A program made the translations under genes and the position numbers. From the NCBI GenBank assembly GCA_048886185.1, contig JBHLKY010000006.1, positions 177,067-209,066 of the forward strand: a DNA stretch of 32,000 nt. Reading direction: 5' to 3'. Below, piece after piece: positions 21,350 through 31,688 of the stretch (its first letter is position 1; each line of letters opens with the position of its first letter). Source of the stretch: Candidatus Hermodarchaeota archaeon. Lineage in GTDB: Archaea > Asgardarchaeota > Heimdallarchaeia > Hodarchaeales > Hodarchaeaceae. The notes beneath the pieces are model-generated. The model did no database searches, was not told where the DNA came from, and was given only the letters and a program-made list of their open reading frames with translations.

Positions 21350-22327
21350 ATGAATAAAGAAATGAGCATTGATCCAGCTTATATTAAATCCGCTATTGAA
21401 ACATTGGAGCTAATCCAACGTATTTTCACCTATTTAAAAGACAATAAAAAAGATAGTGAGCTTCCCAATTTCTTATCACAAATTGAAACCAAAGGCGAGG
21501 CAAGAGTAAAGTCGTCTTTAGGTCAGACTTTAGGAATAGATATTCCTATTGCCGATCAAGAAGGGAAACCAACTAAATATTGGGAAGGAGTTCGTGACAT
21601 GGCCAAACTAGCTCATAAACAATTATTAACACTTCAAGATTCTAACAAGTTTGTCCAATTTTTGGAGAAGACCCAGGCTAGTCTTTCCACTAGAATTGCC
21701 CCTGAAGAGAAACCTATATCTCCTCTTGAGGAAATGCTACAAGCAGAACCCCCTTTGAGAGAGGAAGCTCAACAAGCTTCTCCATTAGAGCACATGCTTA
21801 CAGAACCAGTTCCTTCACCGCCACCTGCCCCTGAACCCACACCAACACCTGTAGCTGAGCCTGTTCCAGCACCAAAACCTACCCCTAAACCCACACCAAC
21901 ACCTGCAGCTGAGTATGTTCCAGCACCAGAACCTAGCCCTAAACCCACACCAACACCTGCAGCTGAGTATGTTCCAGCACCAGAACCTACCCCTAAACCC
22001 ACACCAACACCTGCAGCTGAGCCTGTTCCAGCACCAAAACCCATTCCTGAGCCTATTCCAACACCTACTTACGAACCTACTCCCCAGACAGTACCTGAAC
22101 CGATTATACCAGACGTTCCTCCGCCTCCAGACAAATTTCAAGCTCTTAATGAGGCATTGAAAACAAGTGGCCTTGATCAGCCAACTGAAGAAGTAAGTGA
22201 ACCCACACCATCATTAACAAGCATGCTTTTACAGAAAGATGAAGCCAGTGATAAAGAAGAAGATGATATGTTGTCATTGTCACTTCGGGAAGCTCTGAAA
22301 ATCCTACGAGACGAAGATGAGGATTGA
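21350..22327 (+). CDS. Proline-rich repeat protein with helical N-domain and acidic C-terminal helix
   Basis: N-terminal ~110 aa helical (YWEGVRD), central P/T/A/E repeats, C-terminal DDMLSLSLREALKILRDEDED. Confidence 0.85.
   Translation: MNKEMSIDPAYIKSAIETLELIQRIFTYLKDNKKDSELPNFLSQIETKGEARVKSSLGQTLGIDIPIADQEGKPTKYWEGVRDMAKLAHKQLLTLQDSNKFVQFLEKTQASLSTRIAPEEKPISPLEEMLQAEPPLREEAQQASPLEHMLTEPVPSPPPAPEPTPTPVAEPVPAPKPTPKPTPTPAAEYVPAPEPSPKPTPTPAAEYVPAPEPTPKPTPTPAAEPVPAPKPIPEPIPTPTYEPTPQTVPEPIIPDVPPPPDKFQALNEALKTSGLDQPTEEVSEPTPSLTSMLLQKDEASDKEEDDMLSLSLREALKILRDEDED
21836..22042 (+). repeat. 54-bp coding tandem repeat (~3.8 copies; PTPTP(A/V)AE(Y/P)VPAP(K/E)P(T/S)PK)
   Basis: Units start at 21836, 21890, 21944 and 21998 (CCCACACCAACACCTG...), in frame within 21350..22327. 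Confidence 0.95.
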
Positions 22328-22338
22328 GGAAACCATAT

Positions 22339-23172
22339 ATGAGTGAAAAAAATATCATTCTTACTTGTCTTTGGAAAACTGATGATTTTATCGCCTCTGA
22401 TAGCCAAAGTCGTCCTTTAGATGACGAAGCTGCATTAATTATTGATGAAAACACCTCAAAAATAAGGGTCCAAATTCCTCGGCATTTTTCACTCATCATG
22501 AAAAAGATAATTGAACGCCGTGCCCAATCTATTGCCAAAAGTGGTTTCTTAGTTCCCAAAACTCAAGTAAGAATTGGTGCAGGATTTGATATTGAGATTT
22601 CCAAAGATGAAGTCATCCCAGAGGTTCTCCTGCAAGAAGGCCATAAATATTCATTAGATAGACCTACTCTTGCTTCAGAGGAAACTATTTCTGAGACTCC
22701 ACACCAACCAATAGTAGAACAAGAAGAAGAATATGTCCCCAGCTTTCTAACTTATGAAAAATCCATGCCAGAGACTCCTAGTCAGCCAAAAGTAAAGAAA
22801 GAGGAACCAGAATACATCCCAACGTTCTTAGCTCAAGAAAAAACGATACCTGAAACCCGTCCACATATTCAAGCAAAACCTATGGCCAGTATTCCTCAAA
22901 AATCTCCCCCTCCTGAAACAGTAGAAGTAACTAAGCAAGTTTCTGACGATACTGAAAGCATTGCAGGTCGTTTTATCATTGCTCTTGCTAAAACGGGGGA
23001 TGTGTATATTTCAAAACGAAATGATAATTTCTCTATAGAATATTCTGCTGGTGGAGTTGAATTTCGTGTCCAAAATGATGATATCGAAATATTATCAACT
23101 AGCCGCATCACCTCAGAAGATCAAACTTTACAGCAAGCAATTCTGTTTGCAACACGAAAAACTACATCCTGA
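22339..23172 (+). CDS. Divergent gelsolin-like domain protein with low-complexity linker and small C-terminal domain
   Basis: PLDDEAALIIDENTSKIRVQIPRHFSLIMKKIIERRAQSI aligns with DLANDNVFIIVDENARKIFIWKGEKAPVRRKFISAKSAQQM of the gelsolin at 29271. ATG 22339 (GAGG upstream) is preferred over TTG 22324. The CDS is confident; the fold call is moderate. Confidence 0.65.
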   Translation: MSEKNIILTCLWKTDDFIASDSQSRPLDDEAALIIDENTSKIRVQIPRHFSLIMKKIIERRAQSIAKSGFLVPKTQVRIGAGFDIEISKDEVIPEVLLQEGHKYSLDRPTLASEETISETPHQPIVEQEEEYVPSFLTYEKSMPETPSQPKVKKEEPEYIPTFLAQEKTIPETRPHIQAKPMASIPQKSPPPETVEVTKQVSDDTESIAGRFIIALAKTGDVYISKRNDNFSIEYSAGGVEFRVQNDDIEILSTSRITSEDQTLQQAILFATRKTTS

Positions 23173-23227
23173 TTAAGCTTCCAAGAGTTTTTGATAAAAA
23201 ACGAAGAAAAGATTAAAAAATTTAATT

Positions 23228-25510
23228 TTATAATACAATTTCGCGACTACGAGTCGTATATGTCATTAGTTCTTGGGAAAATAGCTCAACTAAGTTTTCG
23301 TTTGTTGTTATTACCCCGATAAGTCCTTCTTTATCTGGATGCTTGGGTTCTGGACAAACGAGTAACTCCTCAGCATCACGAATACACCCCCAAAAGTCTA
23401 CGGTGTCTAGCTGTTTCAATCTGAGATTAGCAGAAGACAAGATCTTCTTTAATGTTGACTCAGGAACCTTCCCGAAATCCCCTATGATACTCACTCGAGT
23501 CTTCATTGGCAACTTAGAAGCAATCTTCAGAGTTTGTAGCTCTGGCCGAGGCATAAGAATTGTTAACGAAGATTTAGCCCGTAAAGCTAAGTCTCGCAAC
23601 ATCATTATAATGGCAGTTTCTCCAATAACTAAACCACTTGAAAGAAACGAAGCCTCAACTTCTGAAAATTCAACTGATCGTGATAATTCGGATATTTTAT
23701 TGAGTTTTTGCTTCATTTCCTTAATAGAAAAGGTTAATGCGGATATTTCTTGTTCTAATTGTTGCTCAATTTTTGTAGTTTGGCTATTTAGTATTTCTTC
23801 TGTCTTTTTTAAAGTGGAGTTAAGACTTTGTAGTTGATTATCGGCAAAACTTACTGTGAAAGCATTAAAACTATTAACAAACAAATTAAATGCACTTTCA
23901 AGTTCAGATATCTCATCAATCATGCGTTTTAATACAATACTAAAATCATCAGCTTGTTTATCGATTTTATCGCGTATATCATTAAAACCATTTCTTTCCG
24001 CATCAAAAGCAGGTTTTTCTTCAAGAAAAGATTTTAGATTTATTATAAATTCTTCTGATGTCTCATGTACGAGGTTAGAGGTTCTATCGAGAAATTCTTC
24101 AGCTATCTCATCAATCTGTTGTTTGAAAATATCTACTTTTTCATCAAGTAAGGTTTGAATATCATCTATTTTCATTTTTATTATGTTGTTCTTAGAATCT
24201 AGAAAATCATGGAGGTTCATTTTGAATTCAGAGGATATTTTTCGTTTTATCTCTTGTAGGTCATGTGAAAGCTGTTTAACTTCTTCATCTAATACCTTTT
24301 GAAGTTCATTAAGCCCAATTTCGGTTGCTTGTACAATTTCAGTCTCTGTTTCATCCAAGGTACTATTTATTCCATTAATTTTCTCTAAGACCACTATACG
24401 TTCTCTAAGCACCTGTTGAATCGCTTTTCTATCTCGTTCTACTCCCATTAAATTTGAAATAAATGTTTCCTTTCCTTTAAACAATTTTCTACTCTGGATA
24501 TCGTCGATTGAATGTAATATCAATGGTTCCATATTATCAAGTGTTTTATCAAGTGTTTTAAATAAATCTCCCATTGAATCATCTATTTCCTTGTAGCTTT
24601 GTCTTATTTCAAGAAATTTTGACTTTTTTTGAACTGCATTCGATAGAAGGGTCTCAAGAAGAGAGTTTATCCTTTTCACTTTTTCTTCAAAGGTCTCTTG
24701 TATTTCAGTGCGATCACTGTCAAATCTATTAATTACCTCATTAACACTTGTAGAATGTTCCCTAAAATCATTATGGATTGTATCTTTTAACGAGGTAAAA
24801 TTTATCTTATATTCTCCTTTGTAATTTTTAATATCATCCTTTGTTGTTTGGGATATTATACTAAATTTTTGACTCATTTTCGCTGTGTAAGGATCGAACA
24901 CTCCTGGGATTTTCTTTAATTTCAATATATTTACTTCTATTATGTCCTCATTCAACTTTTTCAATTGTGCTATTGCCAGCTGAACCTTATCGTTCAGTTC
25001 CTCAAGGATCATCTGTGTTTTATCCTCTGAAGATTCAATAACCCATTTTAAATCATTTATTAGCTTTTTAAAATTCATGTTGATAGGAGCCAGACCCTGA
25101 GTAAAATCATCTTCAAGTTTTGATGTGTGCATCTGAATAGTTGCTGCTGTTTCAGCAAATAAATCAGAAAATTGTCTCGCCTGCACCTGAAAGGCATTTG
25201 ATGATTCTTTTCTAATATTAACAAGAGTAATAGGATCATAAGCAAGGAAAAATGCCTTCAAATATGGTTCCAAGGCAATGTAACGTCCAACTTTTCCTGG
25301 TATTCTTTTAGCTAATTTACTGCCCACTAGAACTTGGAGGGCTTCTTGGGTTGTTATGTAATCTAAGCCTGATAGTAAACTGACTTGCCCAAGAGTTGCC
25401 ATACCTAAAGAAAGTAAGCTTAAGTATACTTTCCCCTGATCTTCATCGATTAACCCAAGTATTGGAAGAATATCCTTAATTTCTTCTGAAGAAATCGTCA
25501 GTCCGACCAT
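23228..25510 (-). CDS. TrmB-family regulator: N-terminal winged HTH, ~500-aa helical/coiled-coil insert, C-terminal TrmB effector (PLD-like) domain
   Basis: LGLIDEDQGKVYLSLLSLGMATLGQVSLLSGL...LVGSKLAKRIPGKVGRYIALEP (TrmB HTH); C-terminal MLRDLALRAKSSLTILMP...IRDAEELLV...NENLVELF. Confidence 0.8.
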   Translation of the reverse strand: MVGLTISSEEIKDILPILGLIDEDQGKVYLSLLSLGMATLGQVSLLSGLDYITTQEALQVLVGSKLAKRIPGKVGRYIALEPYLKAFFLAYDPITLVNIRKESSNAFQVQARQFSDLFAETAATIQMHTSKLEDDFTQGLAPINMNFKKLINDLKWVIESSEDKTQMILEELNDKVQLAIAQLKKLNEDIIEVNILKLKKIPGVFDPYTAKMSQKFSIISQTTKDDIKNYKGEYKINFTSLKDTIHNDFREHSTSVNEVINRFDSDRTEIQETFEEKVKRINSLLETLLSNAVQKKSKFLEIRQSYKEIDDSMGDLFKTLDKTLDNMEPLILHSIDDIQSRKLFKGKETFISNLMGVERDRKAIQQVLRERIVVLEKINGINSTLDETETEIVQATEIGLNELQKVLDEEVKQLSHDLQEIKRKISSEFKMNLHDFLDSKNNIIKMKIDDIQTLLDEKVDIFKQQIDEIAEEFLDRTSNLVHETSEEFIINLKSFLEEKPAFDAERNGFNDIRDKIDKQADDFSIVLKRMIDEISELESAFNLFVNSFNAFTVSFADNQLQSLNSTLKKTEEILNSQTTKIEQQLEQEISALTFSIKEMKQKLNKISELSRSVEFSEVEASFLSSGLVIGETAIIMMLRDLALRAKSSLTILMPRPELQTLKIASKLPMKTRVSIIGDFGKVPESTLKKILSSANLRLKQLDTVDFWGCIRDAEELLVCPEPKHPDKEGLIGVITTNENLVELFSQELMTYTTRSREIVL

Positions 25511-26196: not shown

Positions 26197-26751
26197 ATGA
26201 AAATCTGTTTGCTAGGAGACGGTGCAGTAGGGAAAACTGCTTTACGTGAACGGTATTTGGGCAAGCAATTCTCTAGTGGGTATGTGATGACAATAGGTGC
26301 AGACTTCGCTGTTAAGAAAACAAGAATAACGACAGAGGAAGGAGAAAAAGAAGTCAAATTTCAAATTTGGGATCTTGCAGGGCAGCCACGTTTCAATAGT
26401 GTCAGAGAACTTTACTATAAAGGTTCCCATGGAGGTTTACTAGTATTTGATATCACCCGACGAGATTCTTTTACCAATTTAAACGCTTGGATAGATGAAC
26501 TTTACAAAAATTCTGGAAGAGGAGCGATACCAGTCGCAGTATTGGGTAATAAGGTGGATTTAAGAGCTGACGTTGATGATTACGTCACCAGAGATGAAGC
26601 CTTAAAATATACTGAAAATCTAAAGAATAAATTTCAGTTTAATTGTAATATACCTTATTTAGAGACCTCAGCCAAAACAGGCGAAAATGTTGATGAATCT
26701 TTCATTAATTTAGCTTCTAGCATTAGATTATTCTTAACGCAACTGAAATAA
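26197..26751 (+). CDS. Rab-like small GTPase
   Basis: G1 GDGAVGKT, G2 MTIGADF, G3 WDLAGQ, G4 GNKVD, G5 ETSAK; no C-terminal Cys. Confidence 0.95.
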   Translation: MKICLLGDGAVGKTALRERYLGKQFSSGYVMTIGADFAVKKTRITTEEGEKEVKFQIWDLAGQPRFNSVRELYYKGSHGGLLVFDITRRDSFTNLNAWIDELYKNSGRGAIPVAVLGNKVDLRADVDDYVTRDEALKYTENLKNKFQFNCNIPYLETSAKTGENVDESFINLASSIRLFLTQLK

Positions 26752-27339: not shown

Positions 27340-27859
27340 AAAGAAAAACCAGATTGGCCTAATTGGTGACTCACAAATCCGCTCAAAATTCCAGTATGAA
27401 CTCTGTTATGAGATTGGTAGAGAAATTGCCAATTCAGACGCGATTCTCATATGTGGGGGGAGAGGAGGTGTGATGGATGCTGCTTGTAAAGGTGTTTATG
27501 ATGCAGGGGGAATTTCTGTTGGTATTCTACCAACAGATGAAAGAGATCCTGAAGTTAATCAATATACAACAATAAAAATACCCACGTTTTTATATTGGGC
27601 GCGAAATGCCTTAGTGCCTTTAGCTTCAGATGGTGTGATTGCTTGTGGAGGAAGGGCAGGTACTCTGAGCGAGTTAGCATTCACTTGTATTTATCAAAAA
27701 CCCCTTGTTTGTATTACCACTATTCCAGGTTGGAGCAAAGAGATCGGTGAGCGTGGATTTATTGAACAACGAAGTTCCAAAGTACAAATCATGACAGCAA
27801 AAACAGCAAAAGACGCTGTTAAAAAAGTTCTTGAAGCCATTTCACTGTTTAAACAATGA
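27329..27859 (+). CDS. LOG/TIGR00725 family Rossmann-fold protein
   Basis: ICGGRGGVMDAACKG, ARNALVPLASDGVIACGGRAGTLSELAF. ATG 27329 is preferred over TTG 27314. Confidence 0.88.
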   Translation: MVIRKKNQIGLIGDSQIRSKFQYELCYEIGREIANSDAILICGGRGGVMDAACKGVYDAGGISVGILPTDERDPEVNQYTTIKIPTFLYWARNALVPLASDGVIACGGRAGTLSELAFTCIYQKPLVCITTIPGWSKEIGERGFIEQRSSKVQIMTAKTAKDAVKKVLEAISLFKQ

Positions 27860-28663
27860 GAAAAGTCCAGAACTGGGTTTTTTGTGTAGAATTTCCGAAA
27901 TACCCTCACATAATGCTTTTAATAACCCATCTTTTTTTGGATTGATAAAATCAGGGTAATCAGTTACTATAAAATGAAACTCAGATTCATCAGATGCCTG
28001 TACCGCATCAAATATTCTATTAGCAATCTCAAGATAGATTTTATCATCTGACTCAATTGGTTCCTCTATCTTAAGATACTGTCCACAGTCTTCGATTTCG
28101 TAAGCATTAATTTCAGCTAAGGTTAAATATGTTCTCATTTTTGGAGATAGAACGGATAAAGTTTTGCTCCAAGAGTACAAAGTTTCAAAACATAATACAT
28201 AATCCTTTTTGTAACATAACAATCCTGCATAACAATAATAAAGGGAAGAAATTACTTCATAAGGATAGTTGGCTTCAAGAATCAGACTTTGTAATTGTGA
28301 AAGGAATTCTGACCTCTGAAAAACCTTTTCTATTATAATTCGATTACAAATTGTCTGGACACAACTATCAAGAGAGGCTTTCGTCAATTCTACTAAAGAT
28401 TCGGAGATTAATTCAGCATAAGCCCGTTCATTAACTTTCTGACTAGTCCTCATTATAAGAACAAGGACTAATTCACAAGCAAGCCTTTTTTGATTTCCAG
28501 AAGTAAAAAGAGGTACCGCCTTTGAAATTACTACTTTAGCTTGATCAGGTTTACCATAACGAAATGCTCTTTGAATAGCTCCTTGTAACATTTGAAAACC
28601 ATCAAACCAATGTCCATTTTTGATTTCATCTAGTCCTCTGCTTATCCAAGGATCTGTTATCAT
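27842..28663 (-). CDS. Alpha-solenoid protein, candidate Get4/TRC35-like
   Basis: All-helical, 273 aa from ATG 28663 (AGGAG upstream). N- and C-terminal segments resemble recalled yeast Get4 (see findings). The CDS is confident; the family call is tentative. Confidence 0.55.
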   Translation of the reverse strand: MITDPWISRGLDEIKNGHWFDGFQMLQGAIQRAFRYGKPDQAKVVISKAVPLFTSGNQKRLACELVLVLIMRTSQKVNERAYAELISESLVELTKASLDSCVQTICNRIIIEKVFQRSEFLSQLQSLILEANYPYEVISSLYYCYAGLLCYKKDYVLCFETLYSWSKTLSVLSPKMRTYLTLAEINAYEIEDCGQYLKIEEPIESDDKIYLEIANRIFDAVQASDESEFHFIVTDYPDFINPKKDGLLKALCEGISEILHKKPSSGLFSLFKQ

Positions 28664-29270
28664 TTTTGTTCTCCTATTATGCCAGATTCTGTATTCTTGA
28701 GGGATTTTTAGGATCAGCATTTTCTAAAAGAAAACAGTCCACTATGTTCTACCTCTGGTTATACATTTAGTTAAAGATCTTCATTTTAACAAAATTAATG
28801 ACGAGTTCAAAAAGTATTACCAAAGAAGAATTGAGACATTTTATCAATAAGGACTTTAAGACATAAAGAGAACTTAGTTTGATTAGACTAATCATACTAG
28901 AACTGTGATGATCCTCAACATTCGGAGTATTATATCTTGATTTAATGATATAATGCCTAAACACCTAATCGTTAATAATTTAAAACAATATTTTATCAAG
29001 GTTTTCTTTTTTAACTGCTTATAGGTTAATCCTCAAAACCTAAATGATAACTGGAAAACTGACAATCTTTCTGAACTAAGGATTAATGAATTCTAGAGAA
29101 AATTTAAATGGATACCAAAGTCTAAAGCTGAACATAGTATTTCTTTACTTAATAAGTTAAGATTTTAAAATACCGCGCGAATAGCCAAATATATTATAGT
29201 TAAATGTATTTAATTAACAAGAACAATCAAGCTTTATAAAATCGTAAAGGGTACAAAGTGTGGATAAGCC

Positions 29271-30224
29271 TTGAGCGACTCGGAATATGTTAAGAAATGG
29301 TCTGTAGAAGATGATGGCACTTTAACTCCCGTCTCTCTTTCCTCAACATCAGATCTTGCTAATGATAACGTTTTCATAATTGTAGATGAAAATGCACGCA
29401 AAATCTTCATTTGGAAGGGGGAGAAAGCACCTGTAAGGAGAAAATTCATTTCAGCAAAATCTGCGCAACAAATGAGAGCTGAGGAGTATGGAATGGTCTA
29501 CAGGATAGAAAGCCTTGATCCAGGGCTTGAAGGTGCTGATTTTCTCGCGATATTTGGGGAAACAGTTAGACCCGATGAAACAACAACAGCAGCAGGCTCA
29601 GAATCAGAGGTTTATGTCAAACCAGTAACAGCCACAACACATGCGCCAACAGCAGCGCCAGCTCGCGCCCCAACAGCAGCCCCAGCTCGCACCCCAGCAG
29701 CAGCGCCAACTCGCGCCCCAACAGCAGCGCCAACTCGCGCGCCAACAGCAGCACCAGCTCGCGCCCCAATAGCAACAACAACTCATGCCCCTGCAGCAGT
29801 TCCAACCCCTAAACAAGCTCCGACACCAGCTCATGCATCAAAAGTTGTAAAAGAAACTGAAGTCGTAGTAACTGAACCTGTTAAAGTTATTACGCCTACA
29901 ACGCTTGAGGAAGTATCTATAAAACTTAAGGACATAGAAATACCTGATAATATGGAACGTGAAATCATCATTATTGGTAACTTGGTTTTTTCTGTTATCA
30001 AAGAACATTTAGCTCTTTTTGCAAAAGATGTTGTTAAGTTAGAACCAATGGATGATCTCCCCTCAGGAATTTTCCCTGCTGCAGATTATCAAGTACGATT
30101 ATTTATAGAAAATGGAAGAGTTATCTTTACAGAACTTCTTAGACAAAAAACACGATCAGAGAGAGAAGAATTCATTGATGATATGCGTAAATCTCTCCAA
30201 GATTTATCAAAGATGGGAATTTAA
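29271..30224 (+). CDS. Asgard one-domain gelsolin + domain X (1DGelX-type) actin regulator
   Basis: Gelsolin domain LANDNVFIIVDENARKIFIWKGEKAPVRRKFISAKSA...GLEGADFLAIF, an A/P/T linker, and C-terminal IPDNMEREIIIIGN...LPSGIFPAADYQVRLFIENGRV resembling recalled domain X. Confidence 0.85.
   Translation: MSDSEYVKKWSVEDDGTLTPVSLSSTSDLANDNVFIIVDENARKIFIWKGEKAPVRRKFISAKSAQQMRAEEYGMVYRIESLDPGLEGADFLAIFGETVRPDETTTAAGSESEVYVKPVTATTHAPTAAPARAPTAAPARTPAAAPTRAPTAAPTRAPTAAPARAPIATTTHAPAAVPTPKQAPTPAHASKVVKETEVVVTEPVKVITPTTLEEVSIKLKDIEIPDNMEREIIIIGNLVFSVIKEHLALFAKDVVKLEPMDDLPSGIFPAADYQVRLFIENGRVIFTELLRQKTRSEREEFIDDMRKSLQDLSKMGI
29643..29774 (+). repeat. 24-bp coding tandem repeat (~5.5 copies; APTAAP(A/T)R)
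   Basis: Units at 29643, 29667, 29691, 29715, 29739 and a partial unit at 29763; GC-rich relative to the flanks; in frame. Confidence 0.95.
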
Positions 30225-30246
30225 GTGATTATTTGGAGAACCTAAA

Positions 30247-30783
30247 GTGACCGATGAATATTTACTCAAAATTTGTGCTATTGGGTCAGGTAGTGTAGGT
30301 AAAACCTCGTTGATTAGGAGATTTGCAGAAGGGAAGTTTACTACAAACTATTTACCTACGCTAGGGGTAGATATTACAACTAAACAGGTCCATGTAGATG
30401 GCAACAATGTTAAACTAATCCTTGTAGACACAGCAGGTCAAGAGTTTTTTGGTAAATTACGACCAAGCTATTATCGAGGGGCTTCTGCTTGTCTTATAAT
30501 GTTTGCTCTTGATGAAAAATCCTCGTTTGATGCTATCCCTGACTGGCTAGCGGAGTTTCGGAAGCATATTCCTGAACCTGCAGTTCCAATTGCCTTAGCT
30601 GGAAACAAAAAAGATCTTGTTGATAAACGGCAAATCTCTACTGACGAAGCTCATTCATTGGCAAAAGACTATGACATGACATATTATGAAACATCTGCAA
30701 AATTGGGTGGTGCTGAGATCGAAGAAATATTTGTTGGTTTAACAAGACGTGTCCTACAACAGAAACAAGAGAATATCGTTTAA
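30247..30783 (+). CDS. Rab-like small GTPase
   Basis: YLLKICAIGSGSVGKT, PTLGVD, VDTAGQE, YYRGA, GNKKD, ETSAK; GTG start; no C-terminal Cys. Confidence 0.95.
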   Translation: MTDEYLLKICAIGSGSVGKTSLIRRFAEGKFTTNYLPTLGVDITTKQVHVDGNNVKLILVDTAGQEFFGKLRPSYYRGASACLIMFALDEKSSFDAIPDWLAEFRKHIPEPAVPIALAGNKKDLVDKRQISTDEAHSLAKDYDMTYYETSAKLGGAEIEEIFVGLTRRVLQQKQENIV

Positions 30784-30821
30784 AAATCATTTACATCGAA
30801 TGAAAAACCCAGGGATTAACA

Positions 30822-31574
30822 ATGCAAGCAAACTCTGACTTTGAAGTCATAAAAAGAGACCATCAGGGTGTTCCAGTAGTTAAAATAGTGTTTTGGGGGC
30901 CGACTTTAGCTGGAAAGACTACTGCACTCACAATTACAAAGGTATTAAAGAGTCTGGAAGATCCAGAAAATGTGTACAAATTTCTAAAATTAGAAGATCC
31001 CACAGGAAGGACGTTGTTCTTCGATCAGGCCATTTTTGGAGTAGGAAGAACCTCGGCTGGATTACCCATTCTGAAGTACCATCTTTTCACTGTTCCTGGT
31101 CAGGAGCGCCATGCTGGCCAACGAAAAGTTGTTTTACGCGGAGCACATGGATTAATTGTTGTCATTGATTCGGAAAAAACTAGATGGGAAGAAAATAAGT
31201 TCTCTTTACAAGAAATTAACACTCTTGCTGGAGATAAGCTAACCAGCGGAGCTTTACCTTATCATATTATGCTGAATAAGATGGATCTCCCTAAAGAACA
31301 GCGAATATCATCCTTGGAAGTAGGGAAATTACTTAGTGAATCAGGAGTAGCTACAAGTCTAAGAGATGCAGCTGTTAGAATAGTTGAAGTGTCCTGTCTC
31401 GAAGCTAGGGATGACCTAAAGAAATTACTTTCAGAAAGCGATCGAAGCACGATTGTAGATGCCAATGGGAGATTAAAAAAAGAAATTCGTCCGCCAAGTG
31501 TTACTCGTGTTATTAAATCTGTTGAAAGTCTGATTCGTGAAATTATTATTCAGATGATGAAACAGCAAAGTTAA
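30822..31574 (+). CDS. MglA-like small GTPase
   Basis: KIVFWGPTLAGKTT, TGRTLFFD, YHLFTVPGQ, LRGAHGLIVVIDS and LNKMD match MglA signatures (TVPGQ replacing DxxGQ; RTLFFD switch I). Confidence 0.88.
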   Translation: MQANSDFEVIKRDHQGVPVVKIVFWGPTLAGKTTALTITKVLKSLEDPENVYKFLKLEDPTGRTLFFDQAIFGVGRTSAGLPILKYHLFTVPGQERHAGQRKVVLRGAHGLIVVIDSEKTRWEENKFSLQEINTLAGDKLTSGALPYHIMLNKMDLPKEQRISSLEVGKLLSESGVATSLRDAAVRIVEVSCLEARDDLKKLLSESDRSTIVDANGRLKKEIRPPSVTRVIKSVESLIREIIIQMMKQQS

Positions 31575-31688
31575 TTGAATCAATTGGTTGAGATCCTTAT
31601 AGTCAATATAATCATGCGTTTCTCCTTTTTTCTCAGATGATATTTTCAAATTTTGGGCTAGAACTCTCTATAAGGAGAAAAAATTTAA

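Follow-up and report, generated by a model that had tools for sequence, protein, structure and literature searches.

Organization of the locus

The DNA analysed here, a stretch of 32,000 nucleotides (nt) from the Hodarchaeales genome of Candidatus Hermodarchaeota archaeon (GCA_048886185.1), is referred to as the window. Near its end lie three genes on the plus strand, which encode a gelsolin protein of the 1DGelX type with a C-terminal domain X (GelX), a Rab-like GTPase and an MglA-like GTPase. The order of these genes is conserved beyond the genus, and in most of the informative loci from other families the gene following GelX encodes a Roadblock/LC7 protein. The three open reading frames (ORFs) are separated by exactly 22 and 38 nt; together with the signals surrounding them, they are arranged as follows (aa, amino acids):

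28721-29270, no strand: AT-rich intergenic region from which the gelsolin gene and the minus-strand gene of a 292-aa protein (27842-28720) diverge
29233-29241, plus strand: TATA-like box TTTATAAAA, read from the sequence; the TTG start follows after about 30 nt
29271-30224, plus strand: 1DGelX-type gene, 317 aa, TTG start
30235-30238, plus strand: Shine-Dalgarno-like element GGAG; the GTG start of the Rab-like gene follows after 8 nt
30247-30783, plus strand: Rab-like GTPase gene, 178 aa, GTG start
30822-31574, plus strand: MglA-type GTPase gene, 250 aa, ATG start
31619-31634, plus strand: T-rich tract, a candidate archaeal terminator, after the stop of the MglA-like gene and before the Sua5/TsaC gene

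An earlier note, made from the sequence alone, had described a co-oriented trio with these two gaps, consisting of a 1DGelX-type gelsolin, a Rab-like and an MglA-like GTPase behind an AT-rich leader of 550 base pairs (bp). The ORF coordinates agree with this arrangement, and Pfam matches as well as relatives of solved structure bear out the three identities. The 550 bp in front of the gelsolin gene are indeed AT-rich, with a guanine-cytosine (GC) content of 27-29% compared to 35-45% in the coding parts. However, they constitute a divergent intergenic region, which probably holds the promoters of both flanking genes and shows no sign of a transcribed leader. The position of the TATA-like box suggests that the 5' untranslated region of the gelsolin gene is very short or absent. 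Upon inspection of the sequence, neither a TATA box nor a T-tract was seen in the 22-nt gap and no T-tract in the 38-nt gap; within and behind the unit, the only T-tract is the one located 3' of the third gene. The sizes of the gaps, the GGAG element and the placement of the T-tract fit co-transcription of the three genes as a single unit. A search for RNA sequencing runs that contain the locus listed none. As the genome contains about 60 small-GTPase-like ORFs in 4.84 megabases, two GTPase genes following one given gene are unlikely to occur by chance. The arrangement exceeds chance, and it also recurs in other lineages.

GelX combines a gelsolin domain with a conserved alpha/beta domain

GelX consists of a gelsolin domain, a linker rich in Pro, Thr and Ala, and domain X; both conserved blocks are visible in the alignment of homologues. 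The elements of the gene are:

29322-29531, plus strand: gelsolin-homology domain, residues 18-87, Pfam PF00626
29646-29806, plus strand: 6.7 copies of a 24-nt tandem repeat; each unit is translated into 8 residues (Pro/Thr/Ala/Arg) of the disordered linker
29904-30212, plus strand: folded core of domain X, residues 212-314, predicted by AlphaFold2 as a helix, five antiparallel strands and a helix

About 95 full-length homologues were found (E-value 6e-70 or better), and every one named by its source is labelled Asgard. The Pfam model Gelsolin scores 23.4 bits for residues 18-87 (cut-off 21). The closest solved gelsolins are Thor 2DGel3 (7c2g, E = 5e-11) and ProGel (7c2f, E = 5e-7), followed by Heimdall 2DGel (7whf), Loki 2DGel, villin, CapG and gelsolin. 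The linker differs in length between orthologues, and its tandem repeat causes a local GC peak of 62%. The same build, in which a long low-complexity linker connects a single gelsolin domain to a C-terminal domain X, is found in the Asgard proteins Thor 1DGelX (Akil et al. 2020, PMC7444086) and B35_GelX of L. ossiferum (bioRxiv 10.1101/2025.11.30.690169). The likeness to Thor 1DGelX is one of architecture and not of direct sequence comparison, with the gelsolin domain being nearest to the solved Thor gelsolins. Thor 1DGelX severs actin without need of calcium, as determined with rabbit actin (PMC7444086). In both publications GelX was treated alone, with Roadblock and MglA unmentioned, whereas in the window its gene shares a putative operon with two GTPase genes.

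The last 128 residues or so, i.e. domain X, are highly conserved. Of 400 Asgard genomes sampled, 350 matched a profile of this domain; most of the matching open frames measure 280-320 aa, with a match to the gelsolin profile at the N-terminus. Previously, domain X has been described as a modelled coiled coil (PMC7444086) and has been called disordered (bioRxiv 10.1101/2025.11.30.690169). We computed two AlphaFold2 models, one from an alignment of close homologues and one from a pan-Asgard alignment. They have the same topology, with predicted local distance difference test values of 75.2 and 82.7, and they confidently predict a compact alpha/beta domain rather than a coiled coil or a disordered region.

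Domain X could not be assigned to a known family, and no solved structure resembles it convincingly. A Foldseek search of the PDB gave no match at an E-value of 0.001 or better for either model, and the domain X profile matched no PDB sequence at an E-value of 10 or better. The best Z-values reported by VIA-align were only 5.0 and 3.8, to Cache-type chemoreceptor or PAS/GAF-type sensor domains. Searching the Atlas with the domain X structure ranked Asgard gelsolin-like clusters first and gave template modelling (TM) scores of 0.33-0.52 for clusters of bacterial sensors; an Atlas search by features produced no usable match. The idea that domain X is itself a Roadblock/LC7 domain was rejected, as hhalign assigned a probability of 0.6% to its relation with the Roadblocks encoded next to GelX, and the model is devoid of the helix that separates the second from the third strand in the Roadblock topology alpha-beta-beta-alpha-beta-beta-beta. 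Predicted-complex scores of domain X with the Rab-like and the MglA-like chain were 0.00 in both runs, which contained no controls, and count neither way. A cluster of 52 Asgard proteins of about 387 aa, having N-terminal domains of the Rho_N/SAP/HeH type, matched the domain X structure with a TM score of 0.56 over 103 residues; domain X may thus be attached to other N-terminal modules as well.

Two GTPases with intact catalytic residues

The product of the second gene matches the Pfam family Ras with an E-value of 1.5e-49, and its top solved relatives are all Rabs (Rab30, Rab23 and Rab8A, E about 1e-35). The motifs G1 to G5 are canonical; in the alignment, GKT, T38, DTAGQ, NKKD and SAK are conserved among the relatives. 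The last 20 residues contain no cysteine for C-terminal prenylation, which is why we name the protein Rab-like. A second Rab-like GTPase of 184 aa is encoded upstream, at 26197-26751 on the plus strand and just in front of the Trm56 gene. It has about 32% identity to the Rab of the operon and occupies the same position in every locus of the genus.

The only strong solved relatives of the third gene product are MglA of M. xanthus (E = 1.5e-19) and of T. thermophilus (7.7e-17); the next one is Ypt1 (0.006). Its G3 motif, TVPGQ, contains a threonine replacing the aspartate of DxxGQ as well as the catalytic glutamine, and is aligned to the TVPGQ of solved MglA. Residue R63 aligns with the arginine of switch I in the RTLFFD segment of M. 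xanthus MglA, which serves as an intrinsic arginine finger (PMC10933270). R63, T90, G93, Q94, N152, K153 and D155 are invariant across 26 sequences, and an NKxD motif is present and likewise invariant. With their catalytic residues intact, both GTPases look active. A C-terminal extension of about 50 residues is conserved in the MglA-like protein and absent from bacterial MglA. Genus-wide, the MglA-like protein shows the highest identity of the three (82-96%, compared to 56-77% for GelX).

Two further loci of the same genome contain related genes. On contig 8 (about 22170-24170), two Roadblock genes flank one for an MglA-like GTPase of the short type, about 200 aa long; a canonical MglA/MglB-type set thus exists besides the 250-aa type of the window. 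A paralogue of the latter (235 aa, 54% identity) is located on contig 6, about 27 kilobases upstream of the window (L117, 2952-3659); it adjoins a urocanase gene, and GelX, Rab and Roadblock genes are not nearby. We had considered that both MglA-like paralogues are paired with a protein of about 630 aa. This was rejected, because the neighbour of the paralogue is the urocanase, which is unrelated to the 637-aa protein encoded on the side of the window.

Conservation of the linkage between GelX, Rab and MglA genes

The order GelX, Rab, MglA is kept in 16 named contigs of Heimdall or Hodarchaeales type that extend far enough downstream, and in all of the 18 other genomes of the genus for which the MglA-like orthologue was found. 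In a locus of the sister family (L016), genes for a Roadblock protein, GelX, the Rab-like and the MglA-like GTPase are co-directional, and all other neighbours differ. A genome of another class (G025, locus L060) contains a domain X protein and a Rab in co-direction, both convergent with an MglA-like gene. The MglA-like protein of this genome has 63% identity to the one of the window, which is above the values of families of the same class (40-49%); transfer of the gene cluster or a quirk of the taxonomy may account for this.

Within the Heimdall class, a Rab-like gene follows GelX in one family (f7), and GelX and a Rab-like gene are convergent in another (f3). GelX-linked Rabs were compared with the GTPase-like ORFs, about 60 in number, in the genome of the window. 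For those from f2, f22 and f7, the best match is the Rab of the window, and for the f3 Rab it is a close paralogue. Hence, the pairing of GelX with Rab is kept more widely, and among the three genes the MglA-like one has the most restricted linkage. The earlier note had proposed to examine the conservation of the operon across Asgard archaea and had named an adjacency unique to this genome, together with a missing nucleotide-dependent interaction, as the outcome that would speak against a functional module. The adjacency is not unique: the triad is found genus-wide and in the sister family, it occurs rearranged in another class, and GelX is tied to genes of GTPase signalling throughout the phylum.

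A Roadblock gene is the usual neighbour of GelX

For a census of neighbourhoods, 40 domain X loci from many families were collected, 39 of which were informative, and the neighbouring genes were scored with custom profiles. Directly after GelX and on the same strand, 28 of the 39 loci possess a Roadblock/LC7 gene, mostly of 130-145 aa; these loci represent 11 families other than that of the window. Two of the 39 have a Rab-like neighbour. The GelX-linked Roadblocks score 160-180 bits on their own model but 41-66 bits on a generic Roadblock model and, judged by these sequence scores, form a dedicated subfamily. For two of them, Pfam confirms the assignment as Roadblock. One member is unusual: in a genome labelled Helarchaeota (L020, 6820-7722, the same locus as L114), the GelX-linked Roadblock is 300 aa long, has a long tail rich in Pro and Thr, and is encoded about 900 nt downstream of GelX.

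The genome of the window contains 11 Roadblock matches, none of which is located in the window. Among the 11 is one clear orthologue of the GelX-linked Roadblock (151 bits, next best 69), which lies on contig 14 among unrelated neighbours. Thus, the GelX-Roadblock pair is split in this genus, where the Rab-like and the MglA-like gene come next after GelX. In the GelX tree, a clade of Hodarchaeales and a divergent, Rab-linked group of the Heimdall class stand apart from the mostly Roadblock-linked rest; the deep branches are weak or long, and we do not draw an order of events from them. Roadblock dimers regulate MglA and provide platforms for Rag and Rab GTPases (PMC10933270).

The overall interpretation given in the earlier note is supported in part, by the gene identities and by an adjacency that is not unique; besides misjudging the leader, it had overlooked Roadblock/LC7 as the usual partner gene of GelX. 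In the literature searched, we found no paper reporting a linkage of GelX to Roadblock, Rab-like or MglA-like genes. The families of GelX, of the Asgard Rab-like and of the Asgard MglA-like proteins are all known. What the window adds is the variant with Rab and MglA-like genes and the compact fold of domain X.

A proposed model for GTPase control of GelX

Gene identities, the conservation of the linkage and the intact catalytic residues are direct observations, which can be combined with the folded domain X of the models. Because the GelX gene adjoins a dedicated Roadblock or a small GTPase gene in lineage after lineage, GelX is most simply understood as a component of a Roadblock/GTPase switch. 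On balance, we lean towards the view that this switch places or times actin remodelling, with the GTPase cycle recruiting or releasing GelX via domain X. According to this model, the cycle of the Rab-like and/or the MglA-like GTPase would probably be tuned by the Roadblock orthologue, now encoded elsewhere, in the role of an MglB-type regulator. Docking would take place at domain X, the conserved alpha/beta module that is attached by a long flexible linker, and recruitment or release of GelX would lead to severing or capping of actin at a defined place or time. Co-transcription, a contact between the proteins, which of them controls the other, and the consequence for actin in this organism are inferred. 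A more detailed mechanism, in which GelX is a direct GTP-dependent effector whose domain X is bound by the Rab-like and/or MglA-like GTPase, with the dedicated Roadblock as an MglB-type GTPase-activating protein (GAP) and severing placed at one site of the cell, is tentative and by itself rather doubtful.

Several findings weigh against a coupling of GelX to the switch. Nine of the 39 informative GelX loci have neither a Roadblock nor a Rab-like neighbour. Synteny within the genus spans the whole neighbourhood, including Trm56, SLOG and Sua5, so that conservation within the genus, taken by itself, carries little weight. In a second genus of the sister family, GelX is followed by Rab and the MglA-like gene is located on another contig. 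In other families, orthologues of the MglA-like protein (40-58% identity) are encoded at loci devoid of GelX, Rab and Roadblock genes; the tie of the MglA-like gene to GelX is limited to Hodarchaeales and one other lineage. Moreover, hhalign, Foldseek, VIA-align and the profile search of PDB sequences detected no similarity of domain X to Roadblock or to any known GTPase-binding domain.

The last two of these points would also be expected if the proteins belonged to a shared pathway without touching each other, being co-expressed in the same process, such as protrusion or membrane remodelling, with the GTPases acting on other targets like membrane or vesicle factors. Operons often group members of a pathway that never meet, and Rab-like GTPases are classically switches of membrane identity. 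Nevertheless, we regard this explanation as unlikely, since GelX has been juxtaposed repeatedly and independently with Roadblock, Rab or MglA-type genes in varied order and orientation, which is the usual pattern of physical partners, and since a dedicated Roadblock subfamily tracks GelX. The synteny of everything around the locus within the genus raises a different possibility, namely an inherited gene order without function, in which unremarkable GTPases of the large Asgard repertoire came to lie beside a gelsolin gene. The number of GTPase-like ORFs in the genome is in line with such an origin, as is the analysis of Tran et al. 2024, according to which Asgard GTPases are generally encoded outside operons with Roadblock or longin genes and genome layout rarely helps (PMC10933270). 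However, the linkage persists where all other neighbours change (L016) and through an inversion (L060), separate families show it again with orthologous Rabs, and the GelX-Roadblock pairing is far above what chance would yield from about 11 Roadblock genes per genome. We therefore consider an order without function very improbable.

The direction of control could also be the reverse. GelX would then be the regulator: domain X and the dedicated Roadblock would form a platform like MglB/MglC or Ragulator, acting as GAP or guanine nucleotide exchange factor (GEF), and the gelsolin domain would tether it to actin filaments. Platforms of the Roadblock type are dimers or heterodimers that bind one GTPase (PMC10933270, PMC9481161). 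Domain X resembles a Roadblock in size, is predicted to be an alpha/beta sandwich, and is encoded beside a Roadblock gene in most of the loci of the census. Yet the missing helix and the profile comparison, which finds no relation, separate it from Roadblock, and GAP or GEF residues cannot be named. Hence, we judge this arrangement to be quite unlikely, and the coupling of GelX to a switch that controls it remains the preferred model.

If binding proves to be true, GTPase control of actin remodelling would predate eukaryotes, and domain X would have a function. The switch would further be linked to the actin-based protrusions and the crawling of cultured Asgard archaea (bioRxiv 10.1101/2025.11.30.690169). 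If GelX were a GTP-dependent effector, GTPase-controlled actin dynamics would have a prokaryotic precursor, found in the order of archaea that is nearest to eukaryotes. Asgard genomes encode dozens of small GTPases, about 60 in the present case, and almost none has been matched to a regulator or target. The locus and the phylum-wide GelX-Roadblock pair name four small soluble proteins, i.e. GelX, the Rab-like and the MglA-like GTPase, and the Roadblock, for joint testing.

Comparison with known GTPase systems

In eukaryotes, Rho, Rac and Cdc42 control actin-severing and capping proteins indirectly through kinases and lipids. The system proposed here is alike in concept, as it couples an actin regulator of the gelsolin/cofilin fold to a switch based on a small GTPase, and the analogy is a functional one only. 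Unlike in eukaryotes, no Rho-family GTPase is involved; GelX would be paired directly, in an operon, with a Rab-like and an MglA-like GTPase.

With the MglA/MglB switch of M. xanthus and T. thermophilus, the third gene shares the TVPGQ motif, the switch-I arginine and the best solved matches; a Roadblock gene in the same gene run, as seen in the sister family (L016), is a further likeness. MglB is a Roadblock dimer which regulates MglA (PMC10933270). In contrast to bacterial MglA, the protein of the window has 250 aa including the extension, and no Roadblock gene is adjacent in its genome; in contrast to MglA/MglB loci, the putative operon also contains genes for a Rab-like GTPase and a gelsolin. 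Type IV pili and the gliding machinery are outputs of bacterial MglA; they would here be replaced by an actin regulator.

An Asgard operon with the gene order Roadblock, Rab-like, DENN has been described by Liu et al. (bioRxiv 10.1101/2020.10.19.343400). It likewise is a conserved Asgard run that joins a Roadblock-superfamily protein to a Rab-like GTPase, and it has been proposed as a GTPase-regulatory module. That operon encodes a DENN-domain protein and no gelsolin, whereas the one of the window encodes GelX and an MglA-type GTPase.

Other neighbouring genes

The 292-aa protein encoded on the minus strand (27842-28720), divergently from GelX, has no match in Pfam or among PDB sequences. Its gene is kept beside GelX only within the genus, where the identity is 35-70%. 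Behind Sua5/TsaC, two genes downstream of the operon and about 370 nt beyond the end of the window, contig 6 encodes a 637-aa protein (L116, 840-2753). For this protein, Pfam gave no match and the Atlas no more than a weak pointer to a Fuz_longin cluster (0.76). As its gene is tied to the operon only within the genus, we did not count it in the module. The protein has a possible longin-like N-terminus, a linker rich in Pro and Glu, and a conserved C-terminal domain.

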